From the NCBI GenBank assembly GCA_051313645.2, contig JBNRSN020000013.1:87916001-87980000 (forward strand): a DNA stretch of 64,000 nucleotides, written 5' to 3'. The DNA comes from Centroscyllium fabricii. Taxonomy: Eukaryota. Positions 19,946 through 48,552 of this stretch are shown piece by piece. Within the stretch, counting starts at the first letter, position 1, and every line of letters begins with the position of its first letter. The notes below the pieces were generated by a model that did not search any database, was not told the origin of the DNA, and saw nothing but the letters and a program-made list of their open reading frames with translations. Position numbers and translations under genes: made by a program.

Positions 19946-20167
19946 AAACAACAACAGAAAATGCTGGAAAAACTCAGCAGGCCAGGCAACATCCGTGGAG
20001 AGAAATAGTCGACGTTTCGGGTTCGGACCCTTTGTCAAGACTTGTCAGTCTGAACCCATAACGTTGTCTCTCTTTCTCTCCACGGATGTTGCCTGGCCTG
20101 CTGAGTTTTTTTCAGCATTTTCTGTTGTTATTTCGGATTTCCAGCATCCGCAGTATTTTCCTATTAT
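19946..20167 (+). mobile_element. Penelope-like fold-back insertion (family A) with a minus-strand hammerhead motif at 20007-20042
   Basis: ~75-bp inverted arms; 15-bp TSD ATAACCC(G/A)AGAACTG at 19931-19945 and 20168-20182; PLE-type end GATTTCCAGCATCCGCAGTATTTT. Confidence 0.85.
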
Positions 20168-20381
20168 ATAACCCAAGAACTGGCCTAGGTCGAAAAGCAC
20201 GTAGCCCAGGCCATCATTCAGCATAGACCAACAAAAAACAACGAACTGGTTATTCGTTCGTTTACTGTGTGTGAGCCCTGCTGGGCGCAAGCTGGCCGCG
20301 CCGATTGCTGTATCACAGTGACTGCACTTCCAAAAGCAACCATTGCTTGTCAAGGTCTTTGGGACGTCCTTGGGATCTATT

Positions 20382-20667
20382 AATGCAAGAAGTCACACAA
20401 CACCAGATTATAGTCCAACAGTTTTATTTTAAATCACAAGCTTTCGGAGCTTTTGCCCCTTCGTCAGGTGAAAGAGAGACTGACTTAAAGAACGCACATA
20501 TGGGAGGGAGGGAGAGATCCGATTCTTTAAGTCAGTCTCTTTTTCACCTGACGAAGGGGCAAAAGCTCCGAAAGCTTGTGATTTAAAATAAAACTTGAAC
20601 TATAATCTGGTGTTGTGTGACTTCTTGCATTTGTCCACCCCAGTCCAACACCGGCACCTCCACATCA
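20382..20667 (+). mobile_element. Penelope-like fold-back insertion (family B) with hammerhead motifs on both strands
   Basis: ~110-bp inverted arms (20382-20492, 20523-20631); 11-bp TSD TGGGATCTATT at 20371-20381 and 20668-20678; TCAC-CTGACGA-A-GGGGC-AAAA-GCTCC-GAAAGCTT-GTGA at 20544-20581; inserted in a Deu-SINE tail. Confidence 0.88.
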
Positions 20668-20997
20668 TGGGATCTATTCAGACGCTGCATAGATGTAGTT
20701 TCTCTCTTTCTTTAGATGCAAGTAGAATGCGATGCTGCGAACATATCCCGCCAAACCATTGAGTACCACGCGGGGCTGCTTGAAATCTAAGCTTGTGCTG
20801 CGGCAATGGCGCAGAGAGCCCTGCACCAATGGGCTTTGCCTGGAGCCCACCGCCAGGCACAGTGATTGCCTTGGTGCCATTCACTACTGCTTGGTGCCCA
20901 GTGTCACACCATATAAATGGCATATTTGTGAAGATGTATCCCTTCGAGCTTAGCGATGGAGAGTCTGACGGGCCGAGCTCCATGCCATCATAACTAA

Positions 20998-21205
20998 CGA
21001 GTCTGGAACTCGCTGCCTGAAAGGGTGGTAGAGGCAGGAACCCTCACAACATTCAAGAAGCATTTAGATGAGCACTTGAAATGCCATAGCATACAAGGCT
21101 ACGGGCCAAGTGCTGGAAAATGGGATTAAAATAGACAGGGCTTGATGGCCGGCGTGGACACGATGGGCCGAAGGGCCTCTTTCTGTGCTGTAAAACTCTA
21201 TGACA
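20998..21205 (+). mobile_element. CR1 3' fragment
   Basis: WNSLPERVVEAGTLTTFKKHLDEHL..GYGPSAGKWD followed by a CR1 3' UTR. Confidence 0.88.
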
Positions 21206-21314
21206 CTGTCAGCTGTGACATCGCCATCACGGGAAAACGTCTCCAACTTTATTTTGAGTGTAGATTTTAAAGTAACGACAGTCTTTCGATTTCGCAATAG
21301 TTTTGTGACATAAT

Positions 21315-21549
21315 GTCCAAAGATGTGCGGGTTAGGTTGATTGGCCATGATAAATTGACCCTTAGTGTTAGGGGGATTGATTACGGGGATAGGGTGGGAT
21401 ATGTGTCGGTGCAGGCTCGATAGGGATCGAGGGATATGGGGACAAGGCAGGGACAAGGTACTGAGTTTGGATGATCAGCCATGATCTCATTGAATGGCGG
21501 AGCAGGCTCGAAGGGCCGAATGGCCTACTCCTGCTCCTATCTTCTATGT
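21315..21549 (+). mobile_element. 5'-truncated HE1-type SINE (tail type 2)
   Basis: GTCCAAAGATGTGCGGGTTAGG through to CTATCTTCTATGTTT, nearly identical to 35921-36170. Confidence 0.88.
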
Positions 21550-21950
21550 TTATAATTAAAATTAATTCAGGAGACCATGAATATGGAAATTATCCCGTGA
21601 TTATTACATCATTATATATCCTGCCGACAATTCTATTACTCGTGAATTCAGTGGCCATGTCGCCGTTCGCTATTTTCAATATTCCATAGTTTCCGGGCCA
21701 ACCTCCACTCTATAATGTTTAGAAGGACCGCAGGCACGAACATAGCAGCTGTTGAATTAACATGAAGGAAAAGAATGCAGTTGCGGAAAAAAAGGTCCTG
21801 TAAAACTGGTCGAATTTTCTGTATCAAAAAAACCCTCATTGCATGGCACCGAAAGGAAAGCATCCATCTATAGAACACAATGAAATATTAGGAAGGGTCT
21901 TCGGGACACACAGATGTTGGGCGTCACCCGCCACCAAACTCTATCCATGT

Positions 21951-22051
21951 TCTGACGAAGGGTCCCAGACCTGAAACGTTAACTCGGTTTCTCTCTCCAC
22001 GGATGTTGCCTGGCCCGCTGAGTATTTCCAGCGTTTTCTGTTGTTATTTCG
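21951..22051 (+). mobile_element. Short Penelope-like 3' end (family A) starting at a hammerhead core
   Basis: GTT-CTGACGA-AG-GGTC-CCA-GACC-T-GAAACGTT-AAC at 21949-21983; 14-bp TSD TCTATCCA(T/C)GTTCT at 21940-21953 and 22052-22065. Confidence 0.82.
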
Positions 22052-22193
22052 TCTATCCACGTTCTATTCTGCTGGTTGTGAAGGGATTCTGGTGTTTATT
22101 TTGTTTCTGGGGTTTATGTCTGGTCTCTGATAATGGCTAACAATCCAACTAAAATAGGGTTAATTCAAAAATTACAAAACTAAAGGGATAGTT

Positions 22194-23625
22194 AAATATA
22201 TATACATGTATTAATAGACATTACAAATACATGTATAACTGAATATAGTATACACAAATAGAAACGCATATATATATAAATATATAATTCAGTTTTACAC
22301 AGCATGCCTATGTATTAGAGACAGTTATACATTTTATTAGCTCTGGAATGTGATGTAATGAATTGTAAAACTGTCCGAAACACCTCCAATGATTAATGTG
22401 CGGATTGTTCAGATCCCGGCCAATAACGCGATCATATTACAATCATTAGCACAGATTATTATATCCGCGCAGAACACTGTGATCCTATTTCTGTGTTTTA
22501 CACTAATAACTAATCCCACATCTTCAAGGCTCTCTTTGGGCGCTGTTGTATTTTTGTTTGCATCACCAGTCCAGATATGGTCAGATATGTCCGCTTCTTA
22601 CAGATGTATTTTTAAATGACATTTCACAGAGCTTGAAAGAATAATCAGAACTCCTAAATTAGATTTAAGAATTAATTCCCAGTTTTTTTAGGTGGGTTTG
22701 TGTGTGTGTGAGAGCGAGCGGGACATTTTGCAACAGTTTATTCTCCTGGTCCTTATAATTATTCTGAAAATACATCGAAAGTGAGAGACGCAAAGCCGAT
22801 CACCCATAATTTGCGGCCAGTTCGGTCTGCTGTCTATCGATATAACCTGCTCTTCAATGACAAGAAATGTAGTAGAGAATACACGCAGGGTGTCTCTCTT
22901 AGCCCTTGAACTCAATATTTAAATCAAAGCCAAATGGAAAAATAAAATAAAAGGTTTCCCGTTTTCTTTGCAGATAATTCTGTAAAAAAAAAATAACGTT
23001 GGGTGAAATGCAATATATTGAAGTAAGAAGGTTGCCCGTATTGGAGGTAGACAGTTTCCCTTCGGTACACTTTCTTAAATCCTTCCTTTCATTAAGTTCT
23101 TAATTTCCTTTCATTGTCTCGGTATCTTTCCATGTCCTTTATTCTCGCTCCCCGGGAACATTGTTGCTGAGTGACACCAACTGAAGGGGGCAAGGTCCTT
23201 GGAGCGGGCAGAGGGGAACATTGGTGGGGCAGTCCAGCCTGCCAGGGAAGAGTAGAGGGACAATATTTAATGGACAATTATTTATTAAGTGGGATTCATT
23301 TTCAGTCATTTAAAACATGCTGAGTATCAGTTGTTATTTGCGAATGGGTATGGGGGAGATGGCAGTGCTGAAGTGATCCCTATTGCAGACTAACATTTTC
23401 TGCTAGACTTTATTTGATGGTTTATTATTGCAGGATATGTGCGCGCACGGCGCATTACACCTTCCGAGCAACAGTCTATATACACAAATATATACACATG
23501 TATTAATAGACATTACAAATACATGTATAACTGAATATAGTATACACAAATAGAAACGCATAAAGATATATATATATCATTCCGTTTTACACAGCCTGCC
23601 TATGTATTAGAGACAGTTATACATT
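22194..23625 (+). repeat. Dispersed 140-bp AT-rich direct repeat (22194-22333 and 23486-23625)
   Basis: Near-identical AAATATATA..CATGTATTAATAGACATTACAAATACATGTATAACTG..AGAGACAGTTATACATT copies offset by 1292 bp. Confidence 0.9.
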
Positions 23626-23940
23626 CGCTATCGGCATTTATTGGTTACCCGCTAGTTTATTTTTCTCCCAGCAGTGATTTAAATTGCTGAATTGAATAAT
23701 TAGAATCTTGATTTGTGGGCTTACTCTGGGTTATTTCCGAACTAAAATGTTTAAATTAAGTAGCAAAAAAAAAATAACAAAACAACTAATAAGATGAACG
23801 GATTAATTTATAAAGACGTTTGTAAGCATAGTGGACAAGCCGAAGCCCGGAGTGTTCCCGCCTGCTCCACTTTCAGGAGAAGGTCTTCAAAAAAAAATGG
23901 GAATTTGAAATCAGGCAGCAAAACCTGCAAATGCTCAGCA

Positions 23941-23994
23941 TGTGTGTGTGTGTGTGTGTGTGTGGTGGGGGGGTGGGGGTGGGGGGGGGGGTGG
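23941..23994 (+). repeat. (TG)n microsatellite followed by G-runs
   Basis: (TG)12 followed by several G-runs separated by single Ts. Confidence 0.85.
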
Positions 23995-25149
23995 CAACGA
24001 GCAGAGCTCTATATCCGAATCGTTAACCTGTCTCTGTACAGGTTCCAATGGCGCTGGCGTGTGTTTCCAGCACTTTTTAAAAATTTAATTTCATTCCTTC
24101 TTGGCGTCAAGGAACAATCAGCACTTTGCCAGTTGAACTGCACACCTTGCCATAGATTCCCAGCGAGGATTAGCTTGAAACTTTGTTTTGCAAATTATTT
24201 GTTTTACTTCATGTTCCTTCCCGTTGGTACACGTACCCCGCAGCAGGGCGGTGAACCTACAGGTTTTTAAATCCGACTGGACTCGCATAGATTTTTAAAA
24301 AAAATCAAACTAATGCTCCTACAAAGTGACCCCATATCCCAAAAGCAAAGTGGATTTCATTAATTGATATAAACATCTTAAAAATACTGAATATTAAGAC
24401 AACTACGGCACACAACATCCGCAGACAACGAATATTAGTTTTCTTCGAAAATAAAATCTAAATTGTATCTTTTCAACAGCGCGGAATAGTCAAGGGAGGC
24501 ATGAATGAGTGGTAAATATTTGGCTGTTTTGGACTTTTTTTTAATTTTTGCCTTTCTATTTGTTTTAATAATTCCTCTAAGCAGTACATAACTCTTCTTG
24601 ATTCATCGAGAACAAAATTAAATCCCGCCGAGAAAGCCCAGAATGCTGCTCCAGTCCTGAGAGTCGGGCCCAATGCACTTTGATGTGCACAATACAGGGG
24701 CCCCGAGGACAACGTCACCTTGCGATATTTCTGGAACGCAGAAGCGTTTCTGCTTTATTTCTCAAACACTATAATTTCGCAGTGTTGTCTCTAGTTCGCT
24801 CTCCTGTTCCAGCTCACCATGGCAAGGGGAAAGAACCACATATGGGAATTAACCACTTCACGGCAGGAAAATAATTCATTAAAAAAATGCAGAAAATGAG
24901 TGTTGCTTCAAAAGTGGCTCAATGTGGTTCCGAACTAAGGTATTCGTTGTCAGCCGCCATCGGTGTCAGAAATGCGCGAGGAAATTGAACAAAATTGTGT
25001 CTAAATTTTGTTCTTGATAGAATTTCCAGCACCAACGTTAGTGTATCAGCAGCAGCCACACGGTTAGTCCTGGATATTTCTGTTCCATTTTAAAACAGTG
25101 CACGATATATGTGGCAGGGGAATGAATGGTAGCGCTTCGAATACAGTTG

Positions 25150-25692
25150 GCCACAAACTTTGTAACCCGGCGCCTCCGGTGCGCAAAGGGTTAAACCCGA
25201 GCGCTTTTCTGTCGCTGAGCATCAAGGTGTCTGTCTGGTGGGGACAAAATGTCCAAATTTGCGGTTGTTTGTCTTGGGATTTTGCTGGCGTGTCATTGGA
25301 TACTGGTTGCTGGCTGCCTGTCCATTGGACGGCAGAGTTTGACAGACACGCAGACCTCACCCCTGCAGTAAAATACGGCAGAAGTTTGCATCAATCAGCC
25401 AGGGGGGAGATGACAGAGTGGAGGCAGAAAGTGGTCTAAATTCAATTACTGCTCTCACTCAGCCAGCAACATGCTAACTGGGACTGTGAGAGATGTAACC
25501 AGCTCTGGGCTTCTGTAGTCTGTGTGTGTCTGTGTGTGTCTGTGTGAAGCACTGAGCGTACAGCCATTATTTTGATTTTTTTTTAAGTTGGAAACTGCAA
25601 CTGTGCCCAGTGCCGGCTCTCAACTTCTCCAATTGGTGTCTTTGAAGGACGGTTTGGTGTTTGCTTGTTCTTGGACTTTCCTTGTTCGGGCG
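25150..25692 (+). promoter_or_regulatory. TBX15: Putative TBX15 core promoter and 5' UTR
   Basis: Two inverted CCAAT boxes (ATTGG 25295, 25324), TGACAG at 25340 and 25411, ATCAATCA at 25390, (TG/TC)n at 25519-25546, directly upstream of the ATG. TSS unknown. Confidence 0.55.
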
Positions 25693-25894
25693 ATGAGTGA
25701 GAGGAGGAGATCTGCAGCTGCCCTTAGTTCGAGGGCTCACGCCTTCTCCGTGGAAGCACTGATCGGGACAAATAAAAAGAGGAAAATCCAGGAATGGGGC
25801 GAGAAGACCATGGAACTGAGTGTGGACAGTATGAGCCCGGACCCGGAGCTTGCAGACAACGTGGACTCAAGCCAGTGTATGGAGATCAACTCCG
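25693..25894 (+). CDS. TBX15: T-box transcription factor TBX15, coding exon 1 (202 nt, phase-1 end)
   Basis: MSERRRSAAALSSRAHAFSVEALIGTNKKRK.. closely matches the human TBX15 N-terminus (eh1 motif FSVEALI, NLS KKRK); GTTAGT donor at 25895; lies downstream of WARS2 as in human. Confidence 0.96.
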
Positions 25895-26945
25895 GTTAGT
25901 GTTGAACAAAAACCACTCGCTTTCCTCCAGCCCACCTTCCTGACCTCAGCTACACTCTACACATGACAAGTGTGGCGGGAGATCATTTCTCTGACACAAT
26001 CATCCCTCTGAAGTTTACTTTAAAAACGAAACCTCCCTTTTATTTTCCCGAACTAGTTTTGCAAATTGCCCCCTCCAGTTTTCAGGGACACATGCTATTC
26101 ACGGTGGGAGAACCAAACCCCGTTTTGTTCTCCATTTGGAAAAAAAAGGAAATATCCAGTTATTTTAAAAAACAAACTCTTCCGTCATTTTCTGCTTTCA
26201 AACTTTAGGATCTGGCGCTGTGCACGTGTTGCCCGCTTTCACTCTGAATAAGCGGCCGGGCTGCCGTTTTGTGGAGTGTTTCTGGAGCGGGCCACTATTG
26301 GGTCTGTAAGGTTTGCTGTTTAGTCTTTTCCGCTTTATTGGGTCGGGCGTTGTGTGGCTAAGTTTTTTTTCCAATCAGGAAGTTGAGATCTTAAACTCGC
26401 AATAAGAGGTGGCCCCATTTCCCCCGTGCTCTGAATTAGTGTGACCATTGGTTAAGTTGCGCATTTCTGTTGGGCGCTGTGAGCACAGAACCCGCTGTTT
26501 GACAGATTATGCAGCGAGTCAGGAGTCAGAACTGGCGGCTGTGTCTTCTGTTGCTGTTACTCGGTGTGGACGAATCCAACTATTCTTTTCCTGCCCAGCT
26601 TCAATCATTAACATAAACAGTGTAACGGCCCGAATGTCGCTGTTTTACACCACACACACCGCGCAATTCATTCCCAATCCTGGGTGCACATCTTGTTCTG
26701 TTATGGAATGGTCCCCAATCCAGCGCCAGACTGCCAAAGCGGTTCAACTTCTATCCCCATCGGAATCCACCGTGATAGGCGTGCACCAGCTCCAACAAGA
26801 TTAAAACTGACCTTTATTTTAGAGAATGCTATAAAGTTAGCAGTTCGATTTGATTCTATTTGTTGTGTTTTGCTTACATCCTGCAAAATGTATTTATATT
26901 TTATTATTAAGGATCTCTGCAGTTCTCCAGTAACTGAAAAGGATT

Positions 26946-27118
26946 ATGATGTGGCGGTGCCGGTGTTGGACTGGGGTGGACAAATGCAAGAAGTCACACA
27001 ACACCAGGTTATAGTCCAACCGCTTTATTTCACCTGAGGAAGGAGTAGCGCTCCGAAAGCTTGTGATTTCAAATAAAACTGTTGGACTATAACCTGGGGT
27101 TGTGTGACTTCTTGCAAT
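26946..27118 (-). mobile_element. Penelope-like fold-back insertion (family B) with an intact + strand hammerhead motif
   Basis: 11-bp TSD TGAAAAGGATT at 26935-26945 and 27119-27129; TCAC-CTGAGGA-A-GGAGT-AGC-GCTCC-GAAAGCTT-GTGA at 27030-27066 between inverted arms. Confidence 0.88.
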
Positions 27119-27729
27119 TGAAAAGGATTGTAACATGTTCCCTGTATAATTACTTTCTATTTAGGAGAATTATAGTTACAAAAACCTTGCCACTCTTATT
27201 TCGTGTAATGTAAGCCTGTTAAAGATGTGTCTGCCCCGGAGTGAGGTCGCTGACTGCACACCTTTCATTCGCTGTCAAACACCGGGTCAGTTTTAGCGCT
27301 TCCGTTCCACCGCCAGGAACATTTCACAATTATCCAGAAAAAAGGGGTTGGCTCCCCTACAATCCGAGCGTTAGAAACGGGCCGACATTAGAAAGATGTA
27401 GGATTTGAATAAAAAATAAACACGTTTTATAATAAGGCATACGGTTCCAATTGTATTGGTGGCAGGCGTGCACGTGAAGTGATATTATTCCAGCTCCTTC
27501 ACTCGTTCCGATTTCCCACTGATAATTGTATTGTAAATGTGAATTCCATCTGCAGAAACGGGTCCGCTTCGGTTTCTTTCTACAATTGCATTTGGTGATT
27601 TGCAGGCAACAAGCCCGTTACTAAATAAGGATGTTTCTCTCAGCTCTTGCGAAACGCTGGGCCGCCCTCCTTTTGTAGGGAGACAATGGGAAGTTAGGCT
27701 GAAGAGGGAATGAGTGTTCACAGATAGTT

Positions 27730-27912
27730 AGACAGGCAACATCCGTGGAGAGAAAGCCGACGTTTTGGGTTCGGACCCTTTGTCCAGACTTGTCAGTCTG
27801 AACCCGAAACGTCGACTCTATATTTCTCTCCACGGTTGTTGCCTGGCCTGTTGAGTTTTTCCAGCGTTTTCTGTTATTATTTCGGATTTGCAGCACCTGC
27901 AGTATTTTGCTG
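27730..27912 (+). mobile_element. Penelope-like fold-back insertion (family A)
   Basis: 16-bp TSD GTGTTCACAGA(T/G)AGTT at 27714-27729 and 27913-27928; same central junction as 19946-20167. Confidence 0.85.
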
Positions 27913-29199
27913 GTGTTCACAGAGAGTTTGTGGTGAGCAGGGTGAAGCTCCTCGCCAGTGAGCGGGTCAATGTCAGAGCCAGCGGCCGCTCCGGCCCTGG
28001 CCAAGTTGCGGTGGACCCTTGGAGATTTGCTCTGGGCTGCTCTTCAAAGAGGAAAGAAATCGGGCGCCACTATTTTTATTTATTGATATAATATGCAAAC
28101 AAACCAAACACTGCCACCAACAAGCGATAGTTTTAAAAGACAAATAGGCCAGGGTCCCGCTGCCAGCACCAACAGGTTGGGTTCGCAGCGCTGTCCGCTC
28201 TGGTTCAGAAATCTCCAACACGCCCGCATTTGGTCAGCTCTTCAGTTCAACCTTGGTATGAACGGGTTTTTCTTTATCAAAGAAATGTTGAAATTTCCAT
28301 GGACTTTGTTGCCAATCCCCTGGCTAATCCGTTATTGAGGGGAATACAATCCGTGCTTTTGACAACCGCTCGTTCTTCTGTCCCAAACACCCGGAGCCCC
28401 AACTAGAAGTTTCCGCTTCAGAGTGTCCCAGAAAGTGGGCAGTGCTGGGGACAAAGATTATCTGAAATTAGAGGGTGAGGGGGGCAAAGTCAGCCTTTCA
28501 GTTCGAGGCCCTTCTGATAGCAGCATTGACTGTCAGGGGGAAGCCGCCAAACCTTTCTATTGCAGTCTGCAATATGTCTGAAAGATAGAGGCTTCTTATT
28601 GTTCGTCTACATTAACCACACTGTCCCTCCCGTAACTGCAAGGAGCAAATTGTAATTCGATCAAACGACTTCGGTCAATTTTCGAAATGTAATCCGCGGG
28701 AAACCAGACTGGAAACGGACTTTGCGAAAGAAACGCGCAGGAGCGAACCGCACGTTAACTCCGGCGATTTAACGCAAAACTGCTTCTTGTAAATGAAATC
28801 TCATTCATTCATCTCTCCTTGTGGACTGTTTGCTTTGTCTGTTCACTCCAGATACGTTTTTGGATTTTTTTAAATATAAGTTTTTAAAAACAGGATTATT
28901 TTTTTTTTTTTTTAAACTGGCGTGGTTGGTCACTTGTTTATCTCGAGTGATTCTGGGACATTGACTGGATTCGGAAAAGGACCGGTTTTGTCCCCTGTTC
29001 ACAGTATCTATGCCCTTCGCTGGGCTACCTTCCCTTGCAAGAAGCCAACAGTTGATCCCAAGCTGGAAGAGTGATTTATCTGTAACTCCAGGGCTGTGCA
29101 GGAGAGGCGGAGATCTCGCGGCTTCTTCAAGGTCGGCTAATAACAAAAAAGGATAAAAAGACAGAGGGGTCAGAACCTGCAAAAAGTCTTTGCGAAGGC

Positions 29200-36170: not shown

Positions 36171-37746
36171 ATTAGCTACTTTCCAATCTTCAGGCATTAA
36201 TCCTGTTTCTAATAATCCCCTAAAGATAGTAGCAAGGACACGACCAGTTTCCCTAGTCATTCCTTTAAGTATCCTTGCATTGGTCCATCCAGCTTTTGTG
36301 CCTTGATTTCCTTTAACTTTCTGAGCCGATCAATGACTCTTATTTGAATGTTTTATTTCTTTTAGGACTTCCCCTTCCCTCCTCCACACCTGGAGGTTTA
36401 ACCTGTAGTCTTTTACAACCTCAGGTTGTCCCAATGTGCTTCACAGTCAATGAAATACTTTTTAAGTGTACTCCATGTTATAATGTAGGGAAACAAGGCA
36501 GGCAATTTGTGCACAGCAAGGTCCCACAGACAAAGAGATAAATAACCAGATTATTTGTTTTGGTAATGTTATGATGTTGTTTGAAAGATAAATGCTGGCC
36601 AGACATTGGTGAACCAGTTGGGTTTTTACAAATGCTTGACATTCTTCTTCTATCTTAACCTTATTTTACACTTTAGCTCTCTGACCAGTTTCTTAACCTT
36701 CTTTACTTGGTTTTTATAATTGTCTCAGTCCAGCATGCTACATATAACTTTAAACTTTAGGAACAACGAGGATGAATTTCCATGAGGATTCTACCACTCT
36801 TCCGTGCAGGAAGTGTGGAAGAATCTTCGGTGGAAGAACCGTGGAAACCCTGGAAAAACTTTGTAAAAACTGTTTCCATCATTTCTCTGTCATTTCTGCT
36901 GCTCTCCCGTCACATTTAATGGGGACAAGCTGAGGAACCGCGACAGAGATTCACCAGCATTCTTTTTCTTTTGTCTTTATTCCCAGCATTACTTCCGTTG
37001 TTGCCCAAATTGAACTTTTCCCTCGGTTACCTAATGATACATATCGTATCTGTACTTTACTCTGTGTATAATATTGCTAAGCATGATCTACTTTTCTTTT
37101 ATTCTAACAGTGCTGTCCAGTCCAGTTTCCTTAACTCATCTCTCAACCCCTCAAAACCCATCTAATTTACTAACATTCGAATTGTTATGAGCCAAGTCCA
37201 GTCATCAAGCCCAGTCATCAAATCCAACATAACAGTATTTTTATTGTACCCATTTATTTTTCTTAACCTTAAACTTCATCATGCTGTAGTCAATGTTCTC
37301 AAAGTGTTTGCTGACTTGACTTCCATTCCCAGCTCCTGGTTTTAACTCAAAGTTATGTCCAATAGCAATTCTTTCTTGTTTGATTTCCTTGACCAACTGC
37401 TCCATGCAACCATCCAATATTGTATCTAGGATTATGTTTTCATTCCTATTGCACCTTTAGTAGATTTCCCAATCTGCCTCTGGTAAATTGAAGTCACTCC
37501 TAACAATTGCTTCTGTTCATGTATGTTTCTTTTTTTTGTCTATAATGTTCTTGGTCCAATCCTTCCTCCTAGTGGCCTATATCAGATGTCCATTGTTAGT
37601 TTCCTTCCGCTTTATGTCTCTAATCCTTATCCACAGGGTTTGCATATTATCCACATCCAGACTAGATAGCTCTGACTACATTATCATCAAGTTCTCTTTC
37701 ACATAAAGACAAATGACATCCTATGTGACTGTGCCTGTGATAAACT

Positions 37747-38144
37747 ATGAGAGGGGATCTCATTGAAACTTATAAAATTCTAACAGGACTAGACAGACTA
37801 GATGCAGGAAGGATGTTCCCGATGGCAGGGGAGTCCAGAACCAGGGGTCATAGTCTAAGGATAAGGGGTAAACCATTTAGGACAGAGATAAGGAGGAATT
37901 TCTTCACCCAGAGAGTGGTGAACCTGTGGAATTCTCTACCACAGAAGGCAGTAGAGGCCAATTCATTAAATATATTCAAGAAGGAGTTAGATATATTTCT
38001 TAAGGCTAAAGGGATCAAGGGATATGGAGAGAAGGCAGGGACAGGGTACTGAATTTGGATGATCAGTCATGATCGCATTGAATGGCGGAGCAGGGTCGAG
38101 GGGCAGAATGGCCTACTCCTGTTCCTATCTTCTATGTTTCTATG
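37747..38144 (+). mobile_element. CR1 3' fragment
   Basis: MRGDLIETYKILTGLDRLDAGRMFP..GYGEKAGTGY*, then a (TTCTATGT)n tail. Confidence 0.93.
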
Positions 38145-38503
38145 TTATCCCTTCACATCCTTCTCAGCCTGTCTGTAGCCATTGACAGGTTGACCACACC
38201 ATCCTCCTCCAACGCCTCTTCTCTGTTGTCCAGCTGGGTGGGATTGCACTCACCTGAGTCCATCGTTACCTCTGGAGTCCCCCAAGGATCTATCCTTAGT
38301 CCCATTCTATTTCTGATCTACATGCTGCCCCTCGCCAACATCATCCAAAAGCACATCAGGTTCCACATGTGCGCTGATGGTACCCAGCTCTATTTCACCA
38401 ACACCTCTCTCAAACCCACCACTGCCTCTGATTTGTCACGCTGCTTATCGAACACTCAGTATTGCATGAGCAGAAAATTCCTCCAATTAAATATTGGGAA
38501 GAC
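38145..38503 (+). mobile_element. L2 LINE RT fragment
   Basis: [41 protein letters not shown]. Confidence 0.85.
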
Positions 38504-39327
38504 AAATTTACCAGAATATTTGAATTCAATTTTCCAACTTGCTGAAAGCAGAAACGATTTGAAATGTGTTAAGGGTGAGTGTTATTAGGGGCACTGCGTG
38601 GGGGCGGGGAGGGGGTGCACTGACTGCTTAACAAAAAGAATCCCTCCCCTTCTAAAGGCAGTTTGAACAAATTTTGCTGGCATCAAATTCTGTCTGAAAA
38701 TCAGTAACCTTTAACATTTTTTTAATGTATTGATTGAGGTTATTGTTTCCGAGAAACCCTTTACAATATCTACACTAAGTTTAGACTAATCCGGGAACAA
38801 ACAATAACGCCTTTATTTTATCACCCATGAATGCAATATAAAGATTTTGAAACTTGGCGCAAAACACCAGGCAGAAAGAAATAAACATTTCTCGTTTCTA
38901 TTCAAATGTCTGAAAAGTGTCCTGGAGACCTCTGCCTGGTCTGGCAGTTTTCACCTAGTCTTTGTAGTAAGAACAACGTAGACTTTCCCGATGCGGAGAC
39001 TCATTTTACCCCAACAATTCCCTGTCTCTCTGCTCTTACATGGTTCATTTCAGAGCCAGTGAAATCCACTGTCTTAAAAATGACAAATGAAATGTTTGGC
39101 TGAAAACCGATTGTAATGTAAATAGGCTGGAGAACTGATCGATGCTGCCCAGCTCCAGGGAGGTGGTGAGACCCAAATGGCCCGAGTGTTGGAACATCGC
39201 AGGGCCGCCAAAAGACTGGGTGAAAATAAATCTAGCATTGGTTTTGAATACCGGCTCAAACACGGCTCGGTGAAATCCAGCGGCAGCGAGATTCCTGTAA
39301 TATCCGAAAGTAATTAAATTAAATCAT

Positions 39328-40198
39328 GATATGGAGCTGCCGGTACCGGTTGGACTGGGGTGGACAAATGTTAGAAGTCACACAACACCAGGTTATAGTC
39401 CAACAGTTTTATTTGAAATCACAAGCTTTCGGAGCATTGCTCCTTCGTCAGGTGAAGTGAAGAGATGCATATAGGCACAGCATATATAGTCAGTGAACAA
39501 TGCTAGATGATTACAGGTAATCTTTCCAACTGCCCTTCATCACACCTCAGCAGAGAGACATTCACAGCAATCACAGGTGTGAATGGTGTCCAAACAGATC
39601 AGTCAGGAAAGCACCACACCGAAGAACAATGAGGTGTAGTCACAAAGGGTCAAATGTGTGAAAAACAAAAACAGAACAATAAAAAAAAATGTCTTACTGG
39701 AAATCACAACCGGTCCAGCCGCATCTGTGTAGTGAGAACAAGCCAAAGACGACTCGAGTCTGGATGATTCTACGTCAGGTGGGGATACATGTAGCGTGAC
39801 ATGAACCCAAGATCCCGGTTGAGGCCGTCCTCATGAGTGCGGAACTTGGCTATCAGTTTCTGCTTGACGATTTTGCGTTGTGTGTCTCGAAGGCCGCCTT
39901 GGAGAATGCTTACTTCGAGATACTTTGGGACTCCACCTCATTGTTCTTCGGCGTGGTGTTTTCTGACTGACCTGTTTGGACACCATTCACACCTTTGATT
40001 GCTGTGAATGTCTCTCTGCCAAGGTGTGATGAAGGGCAGTTGGAAAGATTACCTGTAATTATCTAGTATTGTTCTCCGACTATATATGCTGTGCCGAGAT
40101 GCATCTCTTCACTTCACCTGACGAAGGAGCAGCGCTCCGAAAGCTTGTGATTTCAAATAAAACTATTGGACTATAACCTGGTGTTGTGTGACTTCTTA
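39328..40198 (-). mobile_element. Penelope-like retroelement 3' end (family B): GIY-YIG C-terminus, pLTR and ~275-bp inverted pLTR
   Basis: Minus 39913-39770 translates VSILQGGLRDTQRKIVKQKLIAKFRTHEDGLNRDLGFMSRYMYPHLT*, resembling the vertebrate PLE endonuclease C-terminus. Arms 39373-39647 and 39923-40196; 12-bp TSD AAATTAAATCAT at 39316-39327 and 40199-40210; hammerhead motifs at 39419-39455 (-) and 40114-40150 (+). Confidence 0.92.
40114..40150 (+). ncRNA. Minimal type I (short stem III) hammerhead ribozyme motif, PLE-associated
   Basis: TCAC/GTGA stem I, CTGACGA core, GGAGC/GCTCC stem II, GAAA, palindromic AAGCTT giving a CUU cleavage triplet. Activity untested. Confidence 0.7.
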
Positions 40199-40654
40199 AA
40201 ATTAAATCATCAGTCCGATTATTTCTCACCAAAAGTGTGTTTTCATAGAATCCTGTGGGTCTGACCAGAAACTGTTCAATCTTATTGTACTATCAACAAT
40301 AAGGATCCCAACACTGGGTAAATGCACTTCTAAATTTTTCGGAGGCGTATGTTATTTATTAGAAAGAAAGGTAATGATACAAAGCGAAATGATATTTAGG
40401 GCATGGGTGGATTTTATCAATACCAATGCCTGCTTGTTCTTCTAAAATCGAATATTTATTTCAAGAAACGTATTAACTAAACAGGAGAGATTCTCGGCAC
40501 AAAGTTAAAGATAAATAATCTGTTAAAGAACGATAATAACATCCGTCACCAGTAAATAGCCTTCCCGCTCTCCTGTATAATACATGGAAGAAAAGCTGCG
40601 GCTTTATTATTCAGCACCGGGGAGCCAAGCAGACAACAACTCATATATCCAGCC

Positions 40655-41810
40655 TTTAACGTAATAAAACATCCCACGGTGCTTCACAAGAGTGTTATCA
40701 AAAACTACTGACATCTGCGTCATATAAGGAAACGGTAGGGCAGATGGCCAAAGCTGGGTAGAAGAGGTGGGTTATAAGGAGCATCTTAAAGGAGGAAAGA
40801 GAAGTGCAGAGGTGGAGAGATTTCAGGAGGGAATTTCAGAGCTCAGAACCTAGGCAGCTGAAGGCAGCATCTCCAATAGTGGAGTGTTTAAAATCAGGGA
40901 TGTTCAAAAGGCCAAAATAGGCAGAGTGCAGAGGTCTAGGGGGTTTGTAGGGCTGGAGGAGATTACAGAGATAGGGAGGGGGCGAGGCCATGGAGGGATT
41001 TGAAAATAAGGATGAGAATTTTAAAATCGAGGCGCTGCTTAACTGGGAGCCAGTGTAGGTCAGCGAGCACAGGGGTGATGAGTGAACGGGACTTGGGTGC
41101 GAGTTAGCACGGGACGGCAGAGTTTTGGATGAGCTCAAGTTTATGGAGGGTAGAATGTGGGAGGCCGTCCATGAATGCATTGGAAGAGTCAAGTCTCGAG
41201 GTGACAGAGGCATGGATGAGGGTTTCAGAAGCAGATAAGCTGAGGTAAGGGTGGAGATGGGCAATGTTACCAAGGTGGGAATGGGCAGTCTCAGTGTTAG
41301 AATGGATATGAGGTAGGAAGCTCAATTCATGATCAGACATGACACCAAGGTTGCGAACAGACTTGTCAGTCTTAGACAGTTGCCGGAGAGAGAGATCAAA
41401 TCAGTGGAAAGGGAATGGAGTTTGTGGCATGATTCAAGATTCAAGATAATTTTATTGCCATGTGTAACTCGTACAATGGAATGCTTACTCCCCATTCACT
41501 CTCACAATTATAAATGTATAAATGAAGACAATGGTTTCGGTCTTCCCGATATTTAATTGGTGGAAATTTCAGTGCTAGATGTCGGACAAGCAGTCTGATG
41601 GTATAGAGACGGCGGAAGGTTCGAGAGAGCTGGAGGAAAGGCGGAGCTGGGTATCATCGGCGTCTGTGTGAAAACTCACATTGTGCTGCCAGATGATGTC
41701 AACGAGGGGCAGCATGTAGATGAGGAATAGGAGTGGGCCAAGCATAGACCCTTGGGTGACACCAGAGGCGACAGTGCAGGACCGGGAAGAGAAACCATTG
41801 CAAGACAAGG
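40655..41810 (-). mobile_element. L2 LINE 3' fragment, with a short (TTCAAGA)n-tailed insert at ~41430-41525
   Basis: [28 protein letters not shown] and ETLIHASVTSRLDSSNA. Confidence 0.88.
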
Positions 41811-42264
41811 ACAATGTACCAGTTGTTTGGACTATTTGTACTGCTTGAAAGAAAGACCTGCATTTATATAGCACATTTACAGCCAATGTAGTACTTTTGA
41901 ATTGTAGTCACTGTTATAGTGTAAGTTAGAGACTTTTGTAGATCTCAAAAAATGACAGCAATATTGGGTATAGTTATAAAACATTAGTATAAATATACTC
42001 TGATCCTGGGTCATTTTAAACCATTTGTATAATAGTTAATTTCAAAGGCCTTGCTTGCTACACTGACCATTAGAACAAACTAGCAAAAGAAAACAACCAT
42101 TCAACCGCATCGCTCTACCAGATAGATAAGGGAAATATTTAGCTTCTATAAAGCATTGCATGCCGGGAAATGCGATTAATAATCATATAATTAACCTGGA
42201 ATGAAAAATATCAATCCTTCAAACTGATAGCACTGATAGATCTACATTTATTATAACATTCATG

Positions 42265-44000
42265 GTGGTTGAAGGAGATTACAGAGATAGGGAGAGGCCA
42301 TGGAGGAATTTGACAACAAGGATGACAATTTTGAAATCAAGGCATTGCTTAACCCGGAGCCACTGTACGTCAGCGAGCACAGGGGTGATTGGTAAATGGG
42401 ACTTGGTGCTAGTTAGGACATGGACAGCCGAGTTTTGGATCACCTCAAGTTTACGTAGGGTAGAATGTGGGAGGCCATCCAGGAGTGCATTGGAATAATC
42501 AAGTCTAAAGGTAATAAAGGCATTGATGAGGGTTTCAGCAGCGGATGAGCTGAGGCAAGGGCGGAGACAGGTGATGTTATGGAGGTGGAAATAGGCATTC
42601 TTTGTTATGCTGTGGATATGTGGTCGGAAACTCATTTCAGGATCAAATATGACACCAATGTTGCGAACAGTGTGGTTCAGCCTCAGACAGATGTTAGGGA
42701 GAGGGATGGAGTCAGTTGCTAGGGAACAGAGTTTGTGGTGGGGACCGAAAACAATGGCTTCGGTCTTCCCAATATTTAATTGGAGAAAATTTCTGCTCAT
42801 CCAGAACTGGATGTGGGACAAGCAGTCTGACAATTTAGAGACTGTGGAGGGGTCGCAAGAAGAGGTGGTGAGGTAGAGCTGGGTGTTGTCCATGTACATG
42901 TGGAAATTGACGCTGTGTTTTTGGATGATGTCGTCAAGGGGCAACATGTAGATGAGAAATAGGAGGGGCCAAGGATAGATCCTTGGGGAACACCAGAAGT
43001 AACAATGCGGGAGCGGGAAGAGTAGCCGTTGCAGGTGATTCTCTGGTTACGATTAGATAGATAAGAATGGAACCAGGCGAGAGCATTCCCACCCAGCTGG
43101 ACGACGGTGGAGAGGTGTTGGAGAAGGATGGAGTGGTCAACCATGTTAAAGGCTGCAGGCAAGTCAAGAAGGATGAGGTGGAGGCGCCGGTGCTGGACTG
43201 GGGTGGACAATTGTAAAAAGTCACACAACACCAGGTTATAGTCCAACAGTTTTATTTGAAATCACAAGCTTTCGGAGCGCAGCTCCTTCCTGAGACTATA
43301 ACCTGGTGTTGTGTGACTTCTTACAAGAAGGATAAGGAGGGACAGTTTACCTTTGTCAGTCACAAAGGATGATTTGTGACTTTGAGGAGAGCCGTTTCAG
43401 TACTGTGGCAAGGGCAGAAACCTGATTGGAGAGATTCAAACATGGCATAGTGGGAAAGATGGGTAGAGATTTAGGAGGCGACAACATGTTCAAGGACTTT
43501 GGAGAGGAAAGGGAGGTTGGAGATTGGGCGGTAGTTTGCAAGGACGTAGGGGGCCAAGGGTTGTTTTTTTGAGGAGAGGGGAGATGATGGCAGATTTGAG
43601 GGAGAGGGGGACAGTACCTGAGGAGAGATAACCGTTAAAAATGTCAGGTAACATGGGAGCCAGAAAAGGAAGTTGGGTGATCAGCAGTTTGATGAGAATA
43701 GGGTCGAGGGAGCAGGAGGTGGGTCCCATGGACAAGATGAATGTGGAAAGATCATTAAGGGAGATTGGAGAGAAACTGGAGAAAGATGTGAGTTCAGGGC
43801 TAGGGCAGGGGGGAACCTTAGAGGAAGCTTGGCCTGGTGGGCTAGGGGAAGGAAGGGAAGTGCAGAGGCAGCTGAACGGATGGTCTCAATCTTAGAGACA
43901 AAGAAGTCCATGAGCTCCTCACACATATTGTCGGAGGTGAGGATGGAGGAGACGGGGAGAAGGATTTAAGAAGACGTTAGCAGTAGAGATTAGGAGGCGG
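42265..44000 (-). mobile_element. L2 LINE ORF2 fragment
   Basis: LILLDLPAAFNMVDH, SGVPQGSILGP, FLQLNIGKTEAI and ETLINAFITFRLDYSNALL spread over several frames. Confidence 0.92.
43175..43323 (-). mobile_element. Penelope-like fold-back insertion (family B) inside L2; hammerhead core truncated
   Basis: TSD CAAGAAGGAT at 43165-43174 and 43324-43333; short inverted arm GACTATAACCTGGTGTTGTGTGACTTCTTACA. Confidence 0.85.
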
Positions 44001-44644
44001 AGTTTATCTTAGATCTTGATCTGACTCTGGGATACAGTTGGAGTTTAACTCCAGCATATTGTCAGGTGCTTAGGCCTCCTGGATCCTTTACTAACTTAAC
44101 AGAGGTTTGTTTAAATATTTACAGAAAACGGGCGTAAGACTGGAGATCCCTACTGGCTGTTAGAAGGTGATTGACAGTCTGCAGCATAATTCTGGTGCTG
44201 GCAGCTGCAAATCAAGCTCGGCAGATCGAGTCTCCCACCAGCTCAGCAGTGCACGATTGCTGTATAACAAGTAGACAGCACACACATTCACAGAGCTATG
44301 TTTCAATTTCACACACTTCTGACCATGGCACTGGGAAAAATACAACTTTAATGTGTTATCACTGATTTCCTGCATTATATGTACAACAAGCAAGTAGGTT
44401 TTAGAAGGAGGATTTATGATGTTATCAGTTTTATTTAATGACCTGTTATGTCATCATTGGTTTAGCCAATGGTCCCGCTGTAGGCTGGCATTGGAGAGGC
44501 TTGGCTTGATCTGTAATTCCACACTGAACACTGATTAATCTTATGTTTGATAGGTTGATAGAGGTCAGTAGTAGAAATATGAAACCATATATAGAATTCT
44601 AACTGCCTGGACCCAAATAAGGTTGGAATTTTCTCTCGGAATCA

Positions 44645-45877
44645 GAAGGAAAGAAAGAAAGACTTGTATTTATATAGCATCTTCCACGACCTCAGGACAT
44701 CCCATAGCACTTTACAGTCAATGAAGTTCTTTTGAAGTGTAGTCACTGTTGTAATGTAGGAAACACGGCAGCCAATTTGCACACAGCAAGCTCCCACAAA
44801 CAGCAATGTGCTAATGACCAGATAATCTGTTATTGTTTTGTTGGTTGAGGGATAAATATTGACCAGGACACCGGGGATAACTCCCCTGCTCTTCTTCGAA
44901 ATGGTGCCATGGGAACTTTTACATCCACCTGAGAGAGCAGACGGGCCTCGGTTTAATGGTCCAAAAGTTAGCCTTGGAGCCTTCCTGCGAGTGCAAGGCT
45001 CCAAGGTACACTTACCCTGCATTTCTGCCGTTTTGCAATTATGGGATGTGAAATCCCGAGTTGTACAGCTGCTGCAAGCTCCAAGTGCCCTGCTGGTGCA
45101 ACTCAACGGCGTAGTTAGTGGGAGATATCGCACGGGACCACGGGATCTGCAGGGAGCCAATCAATGGAAGCAATCCTCCATTCATAACTTACACGGAGAA
45201 ATCTGTGTAAGTTATGAAAAGGAAGAGCTTCAAAAACACATATAAACACAAACATAAAATAAAAAAAACACCACATTTTTTAACAATACTCTAACTAACT
45301 TAAATTACCTATTTTACAAAAAAATAAAAATTTAGAAAAAAAAATTAACGTTTTTAACTGGCCTAAAAGAATACTTACCTGTCTTTTAAATTAAAAAAAA
45401 TTAAAAACCTGTTAAAACAATACTTAAATTCTATAAAATAAAGACTTACCTGCTAAAAACGGGTGGTTACGGCTGATATTTTTAAGTGTAAAATCTTCCA
45501 TACTTACCCCGATAAAAAATCGGGAAAAAATTGGAAGTCCACTGCGCACCACCTGGTGCGCAGGCGAACGCGATCCAGCCGGCTGCAGCTCGCGATCCCC
45601 CGCTGGACGCCATCGGAATTGCAAGTAGCAGCTGGAAATGGCTGCTACCTGCAATTCGGAGCTCGGGTGCGTGAGCACCCGGCTCAAAAACCTCCCACGG
45701 TCTTCGTAATTTTTGGTCCAATGTCTCATCCAAAAGATGGCACCTGTGACAGAGCAGCACTCCCTCAGTACCGTACTTGTGTGTCAGCCTAGATTTTTGT
45801 GCTCAAGTGGAGTGGGACCTGAACCCACAACCGTCTGACTCAGAGGCGAGAGGGCTACCTGCTGAACCACGGCTGAC
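44645..45877 (-). mobile_element. SacSINE1-like Deu-SINE split by a MITE
   Basis: (GAAA)n tail at 44645, Deu-like core, tRNA-like head at 45800-45877; SINE sequence is continuous across 44957/45720. Confidence 0.85.
44958..45719. mobile_element. PIF/Harbinger-like MITE, 762 bp
   Basis: TIRs GGTCCAAAAGTTA / TAATTTTTGGTCC; 3-bp TSD AAT (44955-44957, 45720-45722), confirmed by the interrupted SINE. Confidence 0.85.
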
Positions 45878-46325
45878 ACATAAGCCACAATGAGAGCAGG
45901 TTTCCATATGAAATGTTATGAATTCTTATATTGGAACCTGGTACTCATAGTTCACCATATGCAATTTCTCTATTCTCTAGACTGCTTTCTTAGAAAGATT
46001 TAACATTTTAAATTAGAGCTCAATTTGCTCAGAGCCTTAAAAGAGATAGTTGGATAATATAGCCATAAAATTCAAGGAGGGATATAATAAATAGATAATT
46101 TTGCAGTTCTAAAGTGAATTAGAATGAATTAAAGGGAAGGTAACTCCTTCAGATAATTACTATCAATGATATTCACAGGGTAGCTCACTGGTTTTAGTTT
46201 TTTTTAGTAACATTTTAGTTTTTAATTTTTTTCATATTCCTATTTACACAACTCCTCAGTGAGCTCTATATGACCATTTGAGGCAATACAATGGTGGTAA
46301 TCATCCTTTGCAGACTTGTTACAAT

Positions 46326-47078
46326 GGGCCCTGTTTTCCTGTGGCCCGATTGCTGCGGGTGCACGCGCACGTAATTTTTTTTTTTTTTCTGACGGCAATT
46401 TCCTGTTGAAAATGCCGGGTTTTTTTGCTGCGTAGGGGTCTGGCTTTCGTTGGTGCATGGTGCTTTGTGCGTGGGTTGTGAGCAGGCCACGCCCACTGAG
46501 GTCGGCTTTCCCCCCGCACAAAGCACAGACCACAGACAAATATCCGCAAAGGAATCAAAAGTTTCAGCTTTTAAAAGGCAAGCGTTTTTTTTTGGTGGAA
46601 GTGAAAAAAAAACGGGTTTTTAACTCGATTTCAGCAGCTCTGGTGGCCACTGAAATCGAGTTAAAAACCCGTTTTTTCCCCGTTTTTTTTTCAATTCAAC
46701 AAAAATTAAAAAAAACACTTCCATTTAAAAGCTGAAAGACCACACACACACATCACCAAAGGAATGAAAAAAAACCTTACCTTTTAAAGCTTTTAAACAT
46801 GTTTCTCCACTTCTCAAAGCTGCCTGCAGCACCTCTTAAGACTGCTTTCTAAATGTGCAGCTCAAGAGAGACTTGCCCACGTGATACACACGCATTTTGA
46901 GCAGCTGCCACAGGAAATCAGCAGTTCAAAGTCTTCCTGCGTTGGAAGCTGAAGCTCCTTCCCCATCAGCACAGGAAATTGATGTTTCTGGGAATCCCCC
47001 GTGCTGCACCCCCACGAGGCATTTCTGACCCCCCTTCGTGGGGGTGCAGCTCTTCTGGAGCACAGGAAAACAGGGCCC
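46326..47078. mobile_element. PIF/Harbinger-like MITE, 753 bp
   Basis: Perfect 18-bp TIRs GGGCCCTGTTTTCCTGTG; flanks AAT and ATT; internal perfect 28-bp inverted repeat at 46607-46677. Confidence 0.82.
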
Positions 47079-47679
47079 ATTATTCTAACAGGCACACTCA
47101 CTTTAAAATTTGTATATAGGACCCCATTAAAGAGCCTTGTAAAGTGGGCTATTTAAATCTGAGAATCTAAGTAATCTCTTATCATTGGTCATACCTACCT
47201 TGTTCCACTAAGAGCCTGGTATATATAATAGAAAGGATAGTGTGCAGATGGCAGTGTTACAAGTTTGATCATGGGATCCAATGTGCAAAAGTGATGCTCA
47301 AGAGATTCATGAATCTCTAAAGTAGTTCAAGAGTGTCTTAAACAGATTGGCAGCTATCTGTTATTATTTATGGAGTGCAGAATTTTGATTAAAAAATACT
47401 CAGTTTTTCTTGTTAAAAATTGTTATAAAATGAATGTGCAGAGGCGAAAGGCTGAAGAGTCTCGGTTATATTGCCACTTTGCATCACTAAGAAGCCGTTG
47501 CTGCTTCAAAGTGACACAAAAGTGACCTACCTATGGCGAGCAGCAGTCTGAGGAGAAGACCGCCTCATACTGCGAGGACTACAAACCAAAGTCAAGTGGA
47601 GTGTCAAGCCCAGTTTAAAAAGTGCTCAGAGTCCGTTGGACCTGCTGGACACTTTTGTCTTTGCTCTTTGAAAATTGGT

Positions 47680-47900
47680 GATACTGGCAAGGCAGAATTT
47701 ATTGCTCATCCCTGGTTGCCTTGAGGGCATTAAGAGTCAAGTATGCAGTGTGGGACTTGAGTCACGTGTAGCCCAGACCAAGTAGGAATGAAAAATTCCC
47801 TTCCCTGGCAGACATTAGTGAAGCATTTAGGTTTTTGCAACAATCCAGCAGCTTGCATTGTCAATTGATGGGCATAAATGACCAGATTTATTGAATTCAA
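47680..47900 (-). mobile_element. Fragment of a tRNA-derived SINE (same family as 54450-54865)
   Basis: GAATTTATTGCTCATCCCTGGTTGCC..ACATTAGTGAA..CCAGATTTATTGAATTCA. Confidence 0.7.
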
Positions 47901-47911
47901 TGTTACCTTTT

Positions 47912-48552
47912 ACATAGAAACATAGAAGATAGGAGCAGGAGTAGGCCATTCGGCCCCTCGAGCCTGCTCCGCCATTCAATGAGATCATGGCTGATCATCC
48001 AAATTCAGTACCCTGTCCCTGCCTTCTCCCATTACCTCTTGATCCTCTTGATGTGGAGGTGCCAGTGTTGAACTGGGGCGGACAAATGTGAGAAGTCACA
48101 CAACACCAGGTTGTAGTCCAACAGTTTTATTTGAAATCACAAGCTATCGGAGCATTGCTCCTTCATCACATGATGAAGGAGCAGCGCTCCGAAAGCTTGT
48201 GATTTCAAATAAAACTGTTGGACTATAACCTGGTGTTGTGTGACTTCTTACACTTGTTCCTCTTAGCCTTAAGGAATATATCCAACTCCTTGAATATATT
48301 TAATGAACTGGCCTCCACCACCCTCTGTGGCAGAGAATTTCACAGGTTCACCACTCTCTGGGTGAAGAAATTCCTCCTCATCTCAGTTCTAAATGGCTTA
48401 CCCCTTATCCTTAGACTGTGACCCCTGGTTCTGGACTCCCTGGCCATCGGGAACATCCTTCCTGCATCGACTCTGTCCAGGCCTGTCAGAACTTTATAGG
48501 TTTCGATGAGATCTCCTCTCAATCTTCTAAACTCCAGTGAGTATAAGCCCAA
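47912..48552 (-). mobile_element. CR1 3' fragment
   Basis: LGLYSLEFRRLRGDLIETYK..RRNFFTQRVVNL; CATAGAAACATAGAA tail. Confidence 0.92.
48050..48252 (-). mobile_element. Penelope-like fold-back insertion (family B) inside CR1
   Basis: 12-bp TSD CTTG(A/T)TCCTCTT at 48038-48049 and 48253-48264; arms invert exactly at the hammerhead core (TTCATCA-CA-TGATGAA). Confidence 0.88.

Follow-up and report, generated by a model that had tools for sequence, protein, structure and literature searches.

Why do short fold-back insertions in a shark genome end so often beside a hammerhead ribozyme (HHR)? The question is raised by a stretch of 64,000 nt from Centroscyllium fabricii (contig JBNRSN020000013.1, positions 87,916,001 to 87,980,000; hereafter the window), in which a first-pass annotation had described eight such insertions, or stubs, from two families, here called A and B, as Penelope-derived mini-elements carrying HHR motifs. 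Their layout proves to be a known one, to which is added a real and testable regularity in the position of their ends, at the edge of the ribozyme. The stubs are dead insertions of two Neptune-type Penelope-like elements (PLEs), made anew at each landing, and in our judgement the chances are about evenly balanced that they end at the ribozyme because the template RNA begins just before it.

Clustering of ends at the ribozyme edge

Mapping of breakpoints had been set beforehand as a test, and the ends proved non-uniform and tied to the ribozyme in both families, a clustering that holds genome-wide. We mapped the 5' ends of all tails in the fetched loci (171 copies of family B and 111 of family A, window copies excluded, almost all of them located in the first part of contig C1) on natural long copies as references, one of which (r15) was cut back at a short interspersed nuclear element, and counted positions from C3 of CUGA. 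The zone from C3-15 to C3+12, at the 5' edge of the ribozyme core, holds 47 of the 171 ends in B, at 4.5 times the rate of the rest and 10 times that of the downstream zone, and 31 of the 111 ends in A, at 5.6 times the rate of the rest. Per nucleotide, ends in B rise from 0.0014 downstream of the ribozyme to 0.0045 in its 3' half and 0.0138 in the edge zone, and fall to 0.0058 just upstream and 0.0032 beyond; the corresponding values in A are 0.0023, 0.0057, 0.0171, 0.0034 and 0.0029. After removal of three near-duplicate loci (n = 168 in B and 110 in A), a scan statistic computed for every 28-nt window lay above 300 of 300 constant-rate simulations in each family.

The same position is reached by other routes. 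Where the arms of a hairpin meet within -8 to +10 nt, so that alignment drop-off cannot imitate an end, 29/69 sense and 33/69 inverted arms end in the zone in family B, and 12/23 and 11/23 in family A. Alignment-free pattern counts of hairpin turns, made with equal 0-30 nt spacers and differing anchor sequences, found 6,440 turns immediately 5' of the core, against 3,098 within the ribozyme's 3' half and 1,135 downstream. Roughly one fifth of the 3,098 are passengers of a single repeat (11 among 50 listed), and no duplicated flanks were found at 40 sites fetched from 50 listed among the 6,440. Furthermore, plain truncated copies, which have no second arm, peak at the same place (10/49 in B, 12/47 in A). 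Ends lying within 2 nt of the predicted start of the cleavage product are rare, at 2 of 138 arm ends in B and 0 of 46 in A. A candidate tandem-HHR subfamily was rejected, its reference (r85) being a nested copy.

Parent elements and their classification

The Penelope-like origin proposed for the stubs was borne out: they are 5'-truncated insertions of two Neptune-type PLEs. The family B tail has 43,844 exact matches in the genome and a further 3,392 of a CpG variant, 47,236 altogether, and the family A tail has 33,233 exact matches. The parent of family B is represented by locus L123, with a reverse transcriptase (RT) domain (Pfam RVT_1 at 1.4e-8), a GIY-YIG-like core with two inner cysteines that was read by eye and has no Pfam match, and pseudo-long terminal repeats (pLTRs) flanking the open reading frame (ORF) in direct orientation. 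Its ATG comes directly after the tail, and the HHR consequently sits in a leader of ~125 nt. For family A, RT and endonuclease (EN) fragments are present in L194 and other loci, and a PLE ORF ~26-30% identical to that of B stands 320-440 nt upstream of the tails. Both families have CX4CxxC in the linker that joins RT to EN (B: L123; A: L156, L151, L160, L139). In PMC8557442, CX2-5CxxC in this linker is the mark of the Neptune and Nematis clades; on this motif we assign both families to the Neptune type, and an earlier label, "Poseidon-type", was discarded. The hallmarks of an EN+ PLE are present, namely a single ORF with RT and C-terminal GIY-YIG, flanking pLTRs, a one-sided tail and a target site duplication (TSD) of variable length, with a mode of 12-13 bp in B and 14 bp in A. 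An adjacent inverted arm stands beside 77 of the 171 B tails and 24 of the 111 A tails. For annotation, such hairpins resemble microRNA precursors or miniature inverted-repeat transposable elements (MITEs), yet are PLE debris.

The hammerhead motif

The description of the motifs as minimal dimer-type hammerheads also stands, as CUGANGA, GAAA, the UH core, stems I and II and the palindromic stem III positions can all be recognised. Stems I and II covary between the families, with 92.8% of cells paired (20-45% in slid controls) and six of nine pairs changed on both sides, in an alignment whose rows were picked for an intact core and whose covariation is for the most part a single A/B split. The core is intact in 71/88 B segments and the monomer fold is predicted at -10 to -12 kcal/mol; motifs of this class would be expected to self-cleave as dimers. 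In the RNA of the hairpin at 20382 the core is predicted to be paired shut; cofolding returned stem-II-swapped dimers and not a double hammerhead, a structure that the method represents poorly. An Rfam search gave no hammerhead match, only generic hairpin matches under gathering scores.

The ACGTT/AAC palindrome of the family A ribozyme is a recurrent insertion site of a DNA element whose ends read GGG.../GGCC and which shows an apparent duplication of 3 bp (~16 arms among 113 family A copies by eye, in L175, L178, L201, L202, L222, L166, L090 and others). We take this element to resemble a PIF/Harbinger-type MITE with target preference, and its insertion can mimic truncation at the cleavage site.

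Arm geometry and shared template

The tail-less arm of the hairpins starts at a fixed site, with a mode of -35 in B (cluster -34 to -38) and ~-29 in A, such that there are two fixed 3' ends ~35 nt apart. The arms of B hairpins end at the same template position and not at the same length: the median end difference (b-a) is -4 nt, with 26/69 pairs within 5 nt and 3/69 near -35. The ends of the two arms are correlated in B (Spearman 0.60 over 77 hairpins), and among off-peak pairs 12/40 end within 10 nt of one another, against 2.2 expected. Of the two arms, the tail-less one exceeds its partner in length in 37 B hairpins and falls short of it in 19, and both arms are shorter than 200 nt in 58 of the 171 B copies. 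Junctions are distinct in 68/69 B and 23/23 A hairpins, and the head-to-head joins show 0-3 nt of microhomology.

Markers downstream of the ribozyme are discordant between the arms in 2/81, 3/72 and 3/57 cases, at a background mismatch of 1.75% per nt; heterozygosity at these markers is ~0.45, to be set against the discordance of 2/81 and 3/72. The arms thus share their downstream subfamily markers, which argues that both are usually copied from one RNA. A rule of two independent RNAs for each hairpin was rejected, given that stem II type differs in 6/52 hairpins where ~50% would be expected. Three hairpins (L023, L095, L115) have a complete tail on both arms, i.e. both arms begin at the outer site. 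A recurrent identical junction was considered as a self-spreading mini-element and rejected, as 11/13 fetched copies share both flanks and are passengers. A family B hairpin with identical flanks was seen at 11 places on contig C1 (L305-L315), carried by a young amplified repeat.

A potential mechanism and its alternatives

Core promoters can combine TATA and initiator (Inr) consensus motifs, with the TATA motif at about -30. A TATA-like motif occurs at C3-40 to C3-28 in 55/59 long B copies (3 and 3 in the controls) and in 10/24 A copies (1 and 0 in the controls), and an Inr match with its A (+1) at C3-4 is found in 19/24 A copies. The pLTR of Adineta elements also has a TATA and Inr-like pair (PMC3846280). 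We infer that a TATA/Inr core promoter in the pLTR may start the RNA ~4-9 nt before CUGA. The element protein would nick both target strands 10-16 bp apart, and two complementary DNAs (cDNAs) would be primed on one RNA at two internal start sites. If the leader copy of these sites were used, each cDNA would leave the template at the RNA 5' end after ~90-135 nt, and the ends so formed would be fused head to head over 0-3 nt of microhomology; in this scheme the ribozyme would mark the position of the stop without causing it. For the observed layout, TSDs, two 3' ends, peak of 5' ends, unique junctions and arms nearly always of one variant, run-off from two primers at an RNA start just before the ribozyme is the simplest account. 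No extra cap-derived G was evident when the ends were inspected by eye.

Several points weigh against this account. The promoter motifs are short consensus matches, and the copies within a family are related, not independent; family B has no clean Inr (39/59 without a match) and a peak that is ~30 nt broad, and the peak window of -15 to +12 was picked after the data were viewed. In family A the motif reads equally well as a branch point followed by a pyrimidine tract and CAG, there is no correlation of arm ends (24 hairpins; 4/24 within 3 nt, p 0.17), and 0/11 off-peak arm pairs are symmetric. The ORF start is reached (by at least 3 bases) in 31/90 short and 23/51 long copies; short copies thus reach no further into it, which does not favour use of the leader copy. 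Within the ribozyme, the 3' half collects ends at ~3 times the downstream rate, indicating that structure contributes something. In Drosophila virilis the promoter is TATA-less and starts 46 nt before a 75-nt intron (PMC2377424, PMC4209133), which ends at helix I (PMC4209133).

An alternative is that a single cDNA turns back on itself at the 3' end and the second arm arises as its copy. Self-priming of this kind has been proposed for the palindromic junctions of Adineta PLEs (PMC3846280) and suits both the near-constant identity of variant in the two arms and the many tips that are near-perfect palindromes, recurring at internal palindromes such as AAGCTT. We nonetheless consider it unlikely, given that the tail-less arm is more often the longer one and stops at a fixed site ~35 nt in, and that plain truncated copies peak alike, so that fold-back does not account for the position. 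Slightly less probable in our estimation is a template whose 5' end was processed and not capped, either through a 3' splice site located at helix I or through 5'-3' decay halted at a folded, protein-bound ribozyme. The pyrimidine tract and CAG of family A, which finish 2 nt before CUGA, seven ends at C3-3 and the termination of the D. virilis intron at helix I are in keeping with this; against it, many B subfamilies have no AG at this place and the 19 A and 18 B plain stubs listed have no exon-1 sequence in common on their upstream side; no spliced retrocopies were found among them on inspection.

RT is expected to pause at the 3' side of a stem. The first-pass annotation attributed the hairpins to the ribozyme fold, which would stall RT and provoke strand switching; a protein bound there might act likewise. 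The raised rate of ends inside the ribozyme (0.0045 against 0.0014 per nt in B; 3,098 against 1,135 turns) speaks for stalling, as does the requirement of the anole HHR for the element protein in cleavage (PMC11167929). As the main cause, however, stalling on the fold is not supported: RT reaches the 3' side first, whereas the maximum lies at the 5' edge, when both stems have already been copied, and the excess in the 3' half is smaller, with about one fifth of its 3,098 turns being passengers of one repeat. The modest predicted stability of the monomer also tells against stalling, to which we accord a marginally lower probability than to a processed template end.

The same annotation held that the stubs may behave like retrozymes; cleavage would then yield unit RNAs that are retrotransposed as hairpins in their own right. 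Retrozymes do stem from PLE pLTRs, and one cartilaginous fish has them (bioRxiv 2026.07.22.740005); most B segments retain an intact core, and the insertion at 27730 looks secondary to that at 19946, with a TSD of its own. Yet the ends avoid the predicted cleavage site, the junctions are nearly all distinct, and the core in the 20382 hairpin RNA is predicted to be shut. Moreover, direct motif pairs closer than 1.2 kb number 6 among 222 B motifs (five of them at least 960 nt apart) and 2 among 79 A motifs, with spacings of 432-1125 nt over both families, and the 64-kb window has no direct tandem HHR units. The one common identical junction is a passenger of another repeat, and the stubs do not show amplification as a unit. 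Retrozyme-like spread is therefore largely refuted, and we regard it as highly improbable.

Discordance confined to the ribozyme

Among 117 B hairpins, the arms differ at two ribozyme markers in 10/71 and 8/73 cases, whereas a marker that lies 20-30 nt downstream is discordant in 2/81 (Fisher p 0.013 and 0.048, without correction), such that in 11-14% of B hairpins the arms carry different subfamily versions of CUGANGA-stem II and are alike on both sides of it. A pattern pairing the core of one subfamily with that of another matched 184 exact hairpins genome-wide. In 30 fetched hairpins, selected for discordance (two already in the sample and two without a clear tail), the downstream marker is common to both arms in 26 of the 28 scorable. 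The discordant patch is ~12 nt long and may lie in either arm, and the flanking sequence usually matches on both sides.

The pattern hints at an exchange of templates between two RNAs held together as a double hammerhead, which would fit it; short ectopic gene conversion or co-expressed sister elements would fit equally. If exchange were the cause, the discordant patch would be the footprint of two element RNAs joined as a trans double hammerhead during reverse transcription, and the minimal hammerhead would act as an RNA pairing signal and not merely as a cutter. That the stubs form a genome-wide fossil record of PLE replication, preserving the RNA start, two-strand priming on one RNA and ribozyme-confined template exchange, is a reading that we consider unlikely.

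Comparison with known systems

Complex insertions of EN+ PLEs are characterised by 5' truncation, an adjacent inverted pLTR, a one-sided tail of 30-40 bp and a TSD (PMC8557442, PMC3846280). The shark insertions resemble those published in their head-to-head inverted copy, tail on one arm, variable TSD, palindromic junctions and TATA/Inr-like pLTR motifs, and differ in that 58/171 B copies have both arms below 200 nt and that the HHR's 5' edge is where ends are most frequent. Of the architecture that the first-pass annotation thought possibly undescribed in sharks, the inverted layout has already been published (PMC8557442, PMC3846280, PMC4209133). In a search whose coverage lay outside subscription journals and supplements, we found no paper on HHR-edge breakpoint clustering, shark PLE hammerheads or ribozyme-restricted exchange. 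How inverted pLTRs form, and what role weak PLE hammerheads have, are described as open questions (PMC8557442, PMC11167929).

The minimal type-I hammerheads of metazoan PLEs were described by Cervera and De la Pena (2014, PMC4209133), with motifs 100-700 bp apart on opposite strands. Those of the shark likewise lack helix III as monomers and have palindromic 15.2-16.2 positions and an extra base before stem II; sharks as hosts, the clustering of breakpoints and the exchange of ribozyme patches between arms are not shown in that account. In vitro work on Poseidon of Anolis carolinensis (Frangieh et al. 2024, PMC11167929) found that two internal RT start sites define the tail, that both target strands are cut and extended, and that insertion does not need cleavage. 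The shark families share the two start sites and an HHR at a similar distance upstream of them, and differ in their CX4CxxC linker and, in family B, in an ATG that follows the tail and does not lie in stem II. The avoidance of the cleavage site agrees with the anole element, where insertion needs no cleavage. Non-LTR retrozymes are direct tandem repeats whose monomers are freed by double cleavage (PMC7229834; bioRxiv 2026.07.22.740005). The stubs are like them in being non-coding, PLE-derived and 100-300 nt long with a type-I HHR, and unlike them in being dispersed and inverted, with unique junctions and a beginning upstream of the cleavage site. Independent stubs number in the tens of thousands, and positional statistics drawn from them exclude ends defined by cleavage and make exact predictions about where the RNA starts, about two-primer synthesis and possibly about RNA dimers.

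The eight insertions of the window

All eight insertions lie where they had been placed, each with a TSD of 10-16 bp and 0-1 mismatch, and seven have inverted arms, the exception being a plain truncated copy at 21951. The two families are likewise confirmed, with A at 19946, 21951 and 27730 and B at 20382, 26946, 39328, 43175 and 48050. Their features are as follows.

19946..20167 (+): family A fold-back stub; inverted arm 19946-~20035, sense arm and tail to 20167
19931-19945 / 20168-20182: TSD of 19946, 15 bp, 1 mismatch
20382..20667 (+): family B fold-back stub, intact HHR in each arm; TSD 20371/20668, 11 bp, 0 mismatch
20544..20581 (+): minimal type-I hammerhead motif, family B, sense arm of 20382
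20434..20471 (-): minimal hammerhead motif, inverted arm of 20382
21949..22051 (+): family A plain truncated copy (21951), intact HHR 21949-21983
21940/22052: TSD of 21951, 14 bp, 1 mismatch, shared in part with the element's first bases
26946..27118 (-): family B fold-back stub; TSD 26935/27119, 11 bp, 0 mismatch
27030-27066 (+): intact HHR in the tail-less arm of the 26946 stub
27730..27912 (+): family A fold-back stub with the junction of 19946, inverted arm shortened; TSD 27714/27913, 16 bp, 1 mismatch
39328..40198 (-): family B insertion, from ORF end to tail, plus a 275-nt inverted pLTR copy; TSD 39316/40199, 12 bp, 0 mismatch
39419-39455 (-) and 40114-40150 (+): intact HHRs of the 39328 insertion
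39770..39922 (-): last ~45 codons of the family B EN domain, matching the C-terminus of the L123 ORF
43175..43323 (-): family B stub within a long interspersed nuclear element fragment; TSD 43165/43324, 10 bp, 0 mismatch
48050..48252 (-): family B near-perfect hairpin; TSD 48038/48253, 12 bp, 1 mismatch

Retention of the ribozyme, claimed for several copies, applies to half of them: an intact CUGANGA...GAAA-NN-UH core is present in 20382, 21951, 26946 and 39328, over which six intact minimal motifs are spread, and is mutated or cut in the other four. Ends near the ribozyme, here between 15 nt before and 12 nt after the C of CUGA, occur in 6/8 elements (5/7 events), most copies as had been stated, while 20382 and 39328 lack one. 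In the 19946 stub the core is mutated and the hairpin turns at its 5' edge. The arms of 20382 end 25 and 60 nt upstream of the core, with a tail of ~35 nt on the right arm only, and the turn of 39328 is far away from the HHR. The copy at 21951 starts 3 nt before CUGA and ends at the inner start site, without a tail. In 26946 the tail arm ends 3' of the HHR and the other arm 6 nt before CUGA; in 43175 the tail arm stops in CUGANGA and the inverted arm measures 33 nt; and the tip of 48050 lies within the CUGAUGA box. The insertion at 39328 had been taken to tie family B to a GIY-YIG ORF. It retains only the last ~45 EN codons, for which a Pfam search of the fragment alone gave no match, and the link itself is proven via L123.

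The eight are not all separate: 19946 and 27730 share one derived junction, leaving seven independent events. This junction with the same derived changes occurs only twice in the 7.2-Gb genome, even when two mismatches are allowed, and 27730 is probably a secondary copy of 19946 or a conversion product. The two lie 7.8 kb apart with different TSDs, and local re-retrotransposition of a hairpin is possible. The pair is the one hint that hairpins can be recopied, with conversion between two older copies as the alternative.

Other features of the window

A tryptophanyl/tyrosyl-tRNA synthetase exon (Pfam tRNA-synt_1b), presumably WARS2-like, lies at 1157-1663 (+). The segment at ~25693-25899 (+) resembles, we assume, the first exon of TBX15, and a Pfam search of this exon-like segment gave no match; five of the eight stubs are found no more than 6 kb from it. 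Inverted repeats that lack hammerhead motifs and are probably MITEs or DNA transposons lie at 46561-46738, 57407-57821, 63118-63885, 6897-7406 and 9456-10815. An AT-rich segment of ~130 nt is present in two direct copies 1.3 kb apart (22201-22330 and 23493-23620), and a short tandem repeat at 55570-55900 gives rise to repetitive open frames.

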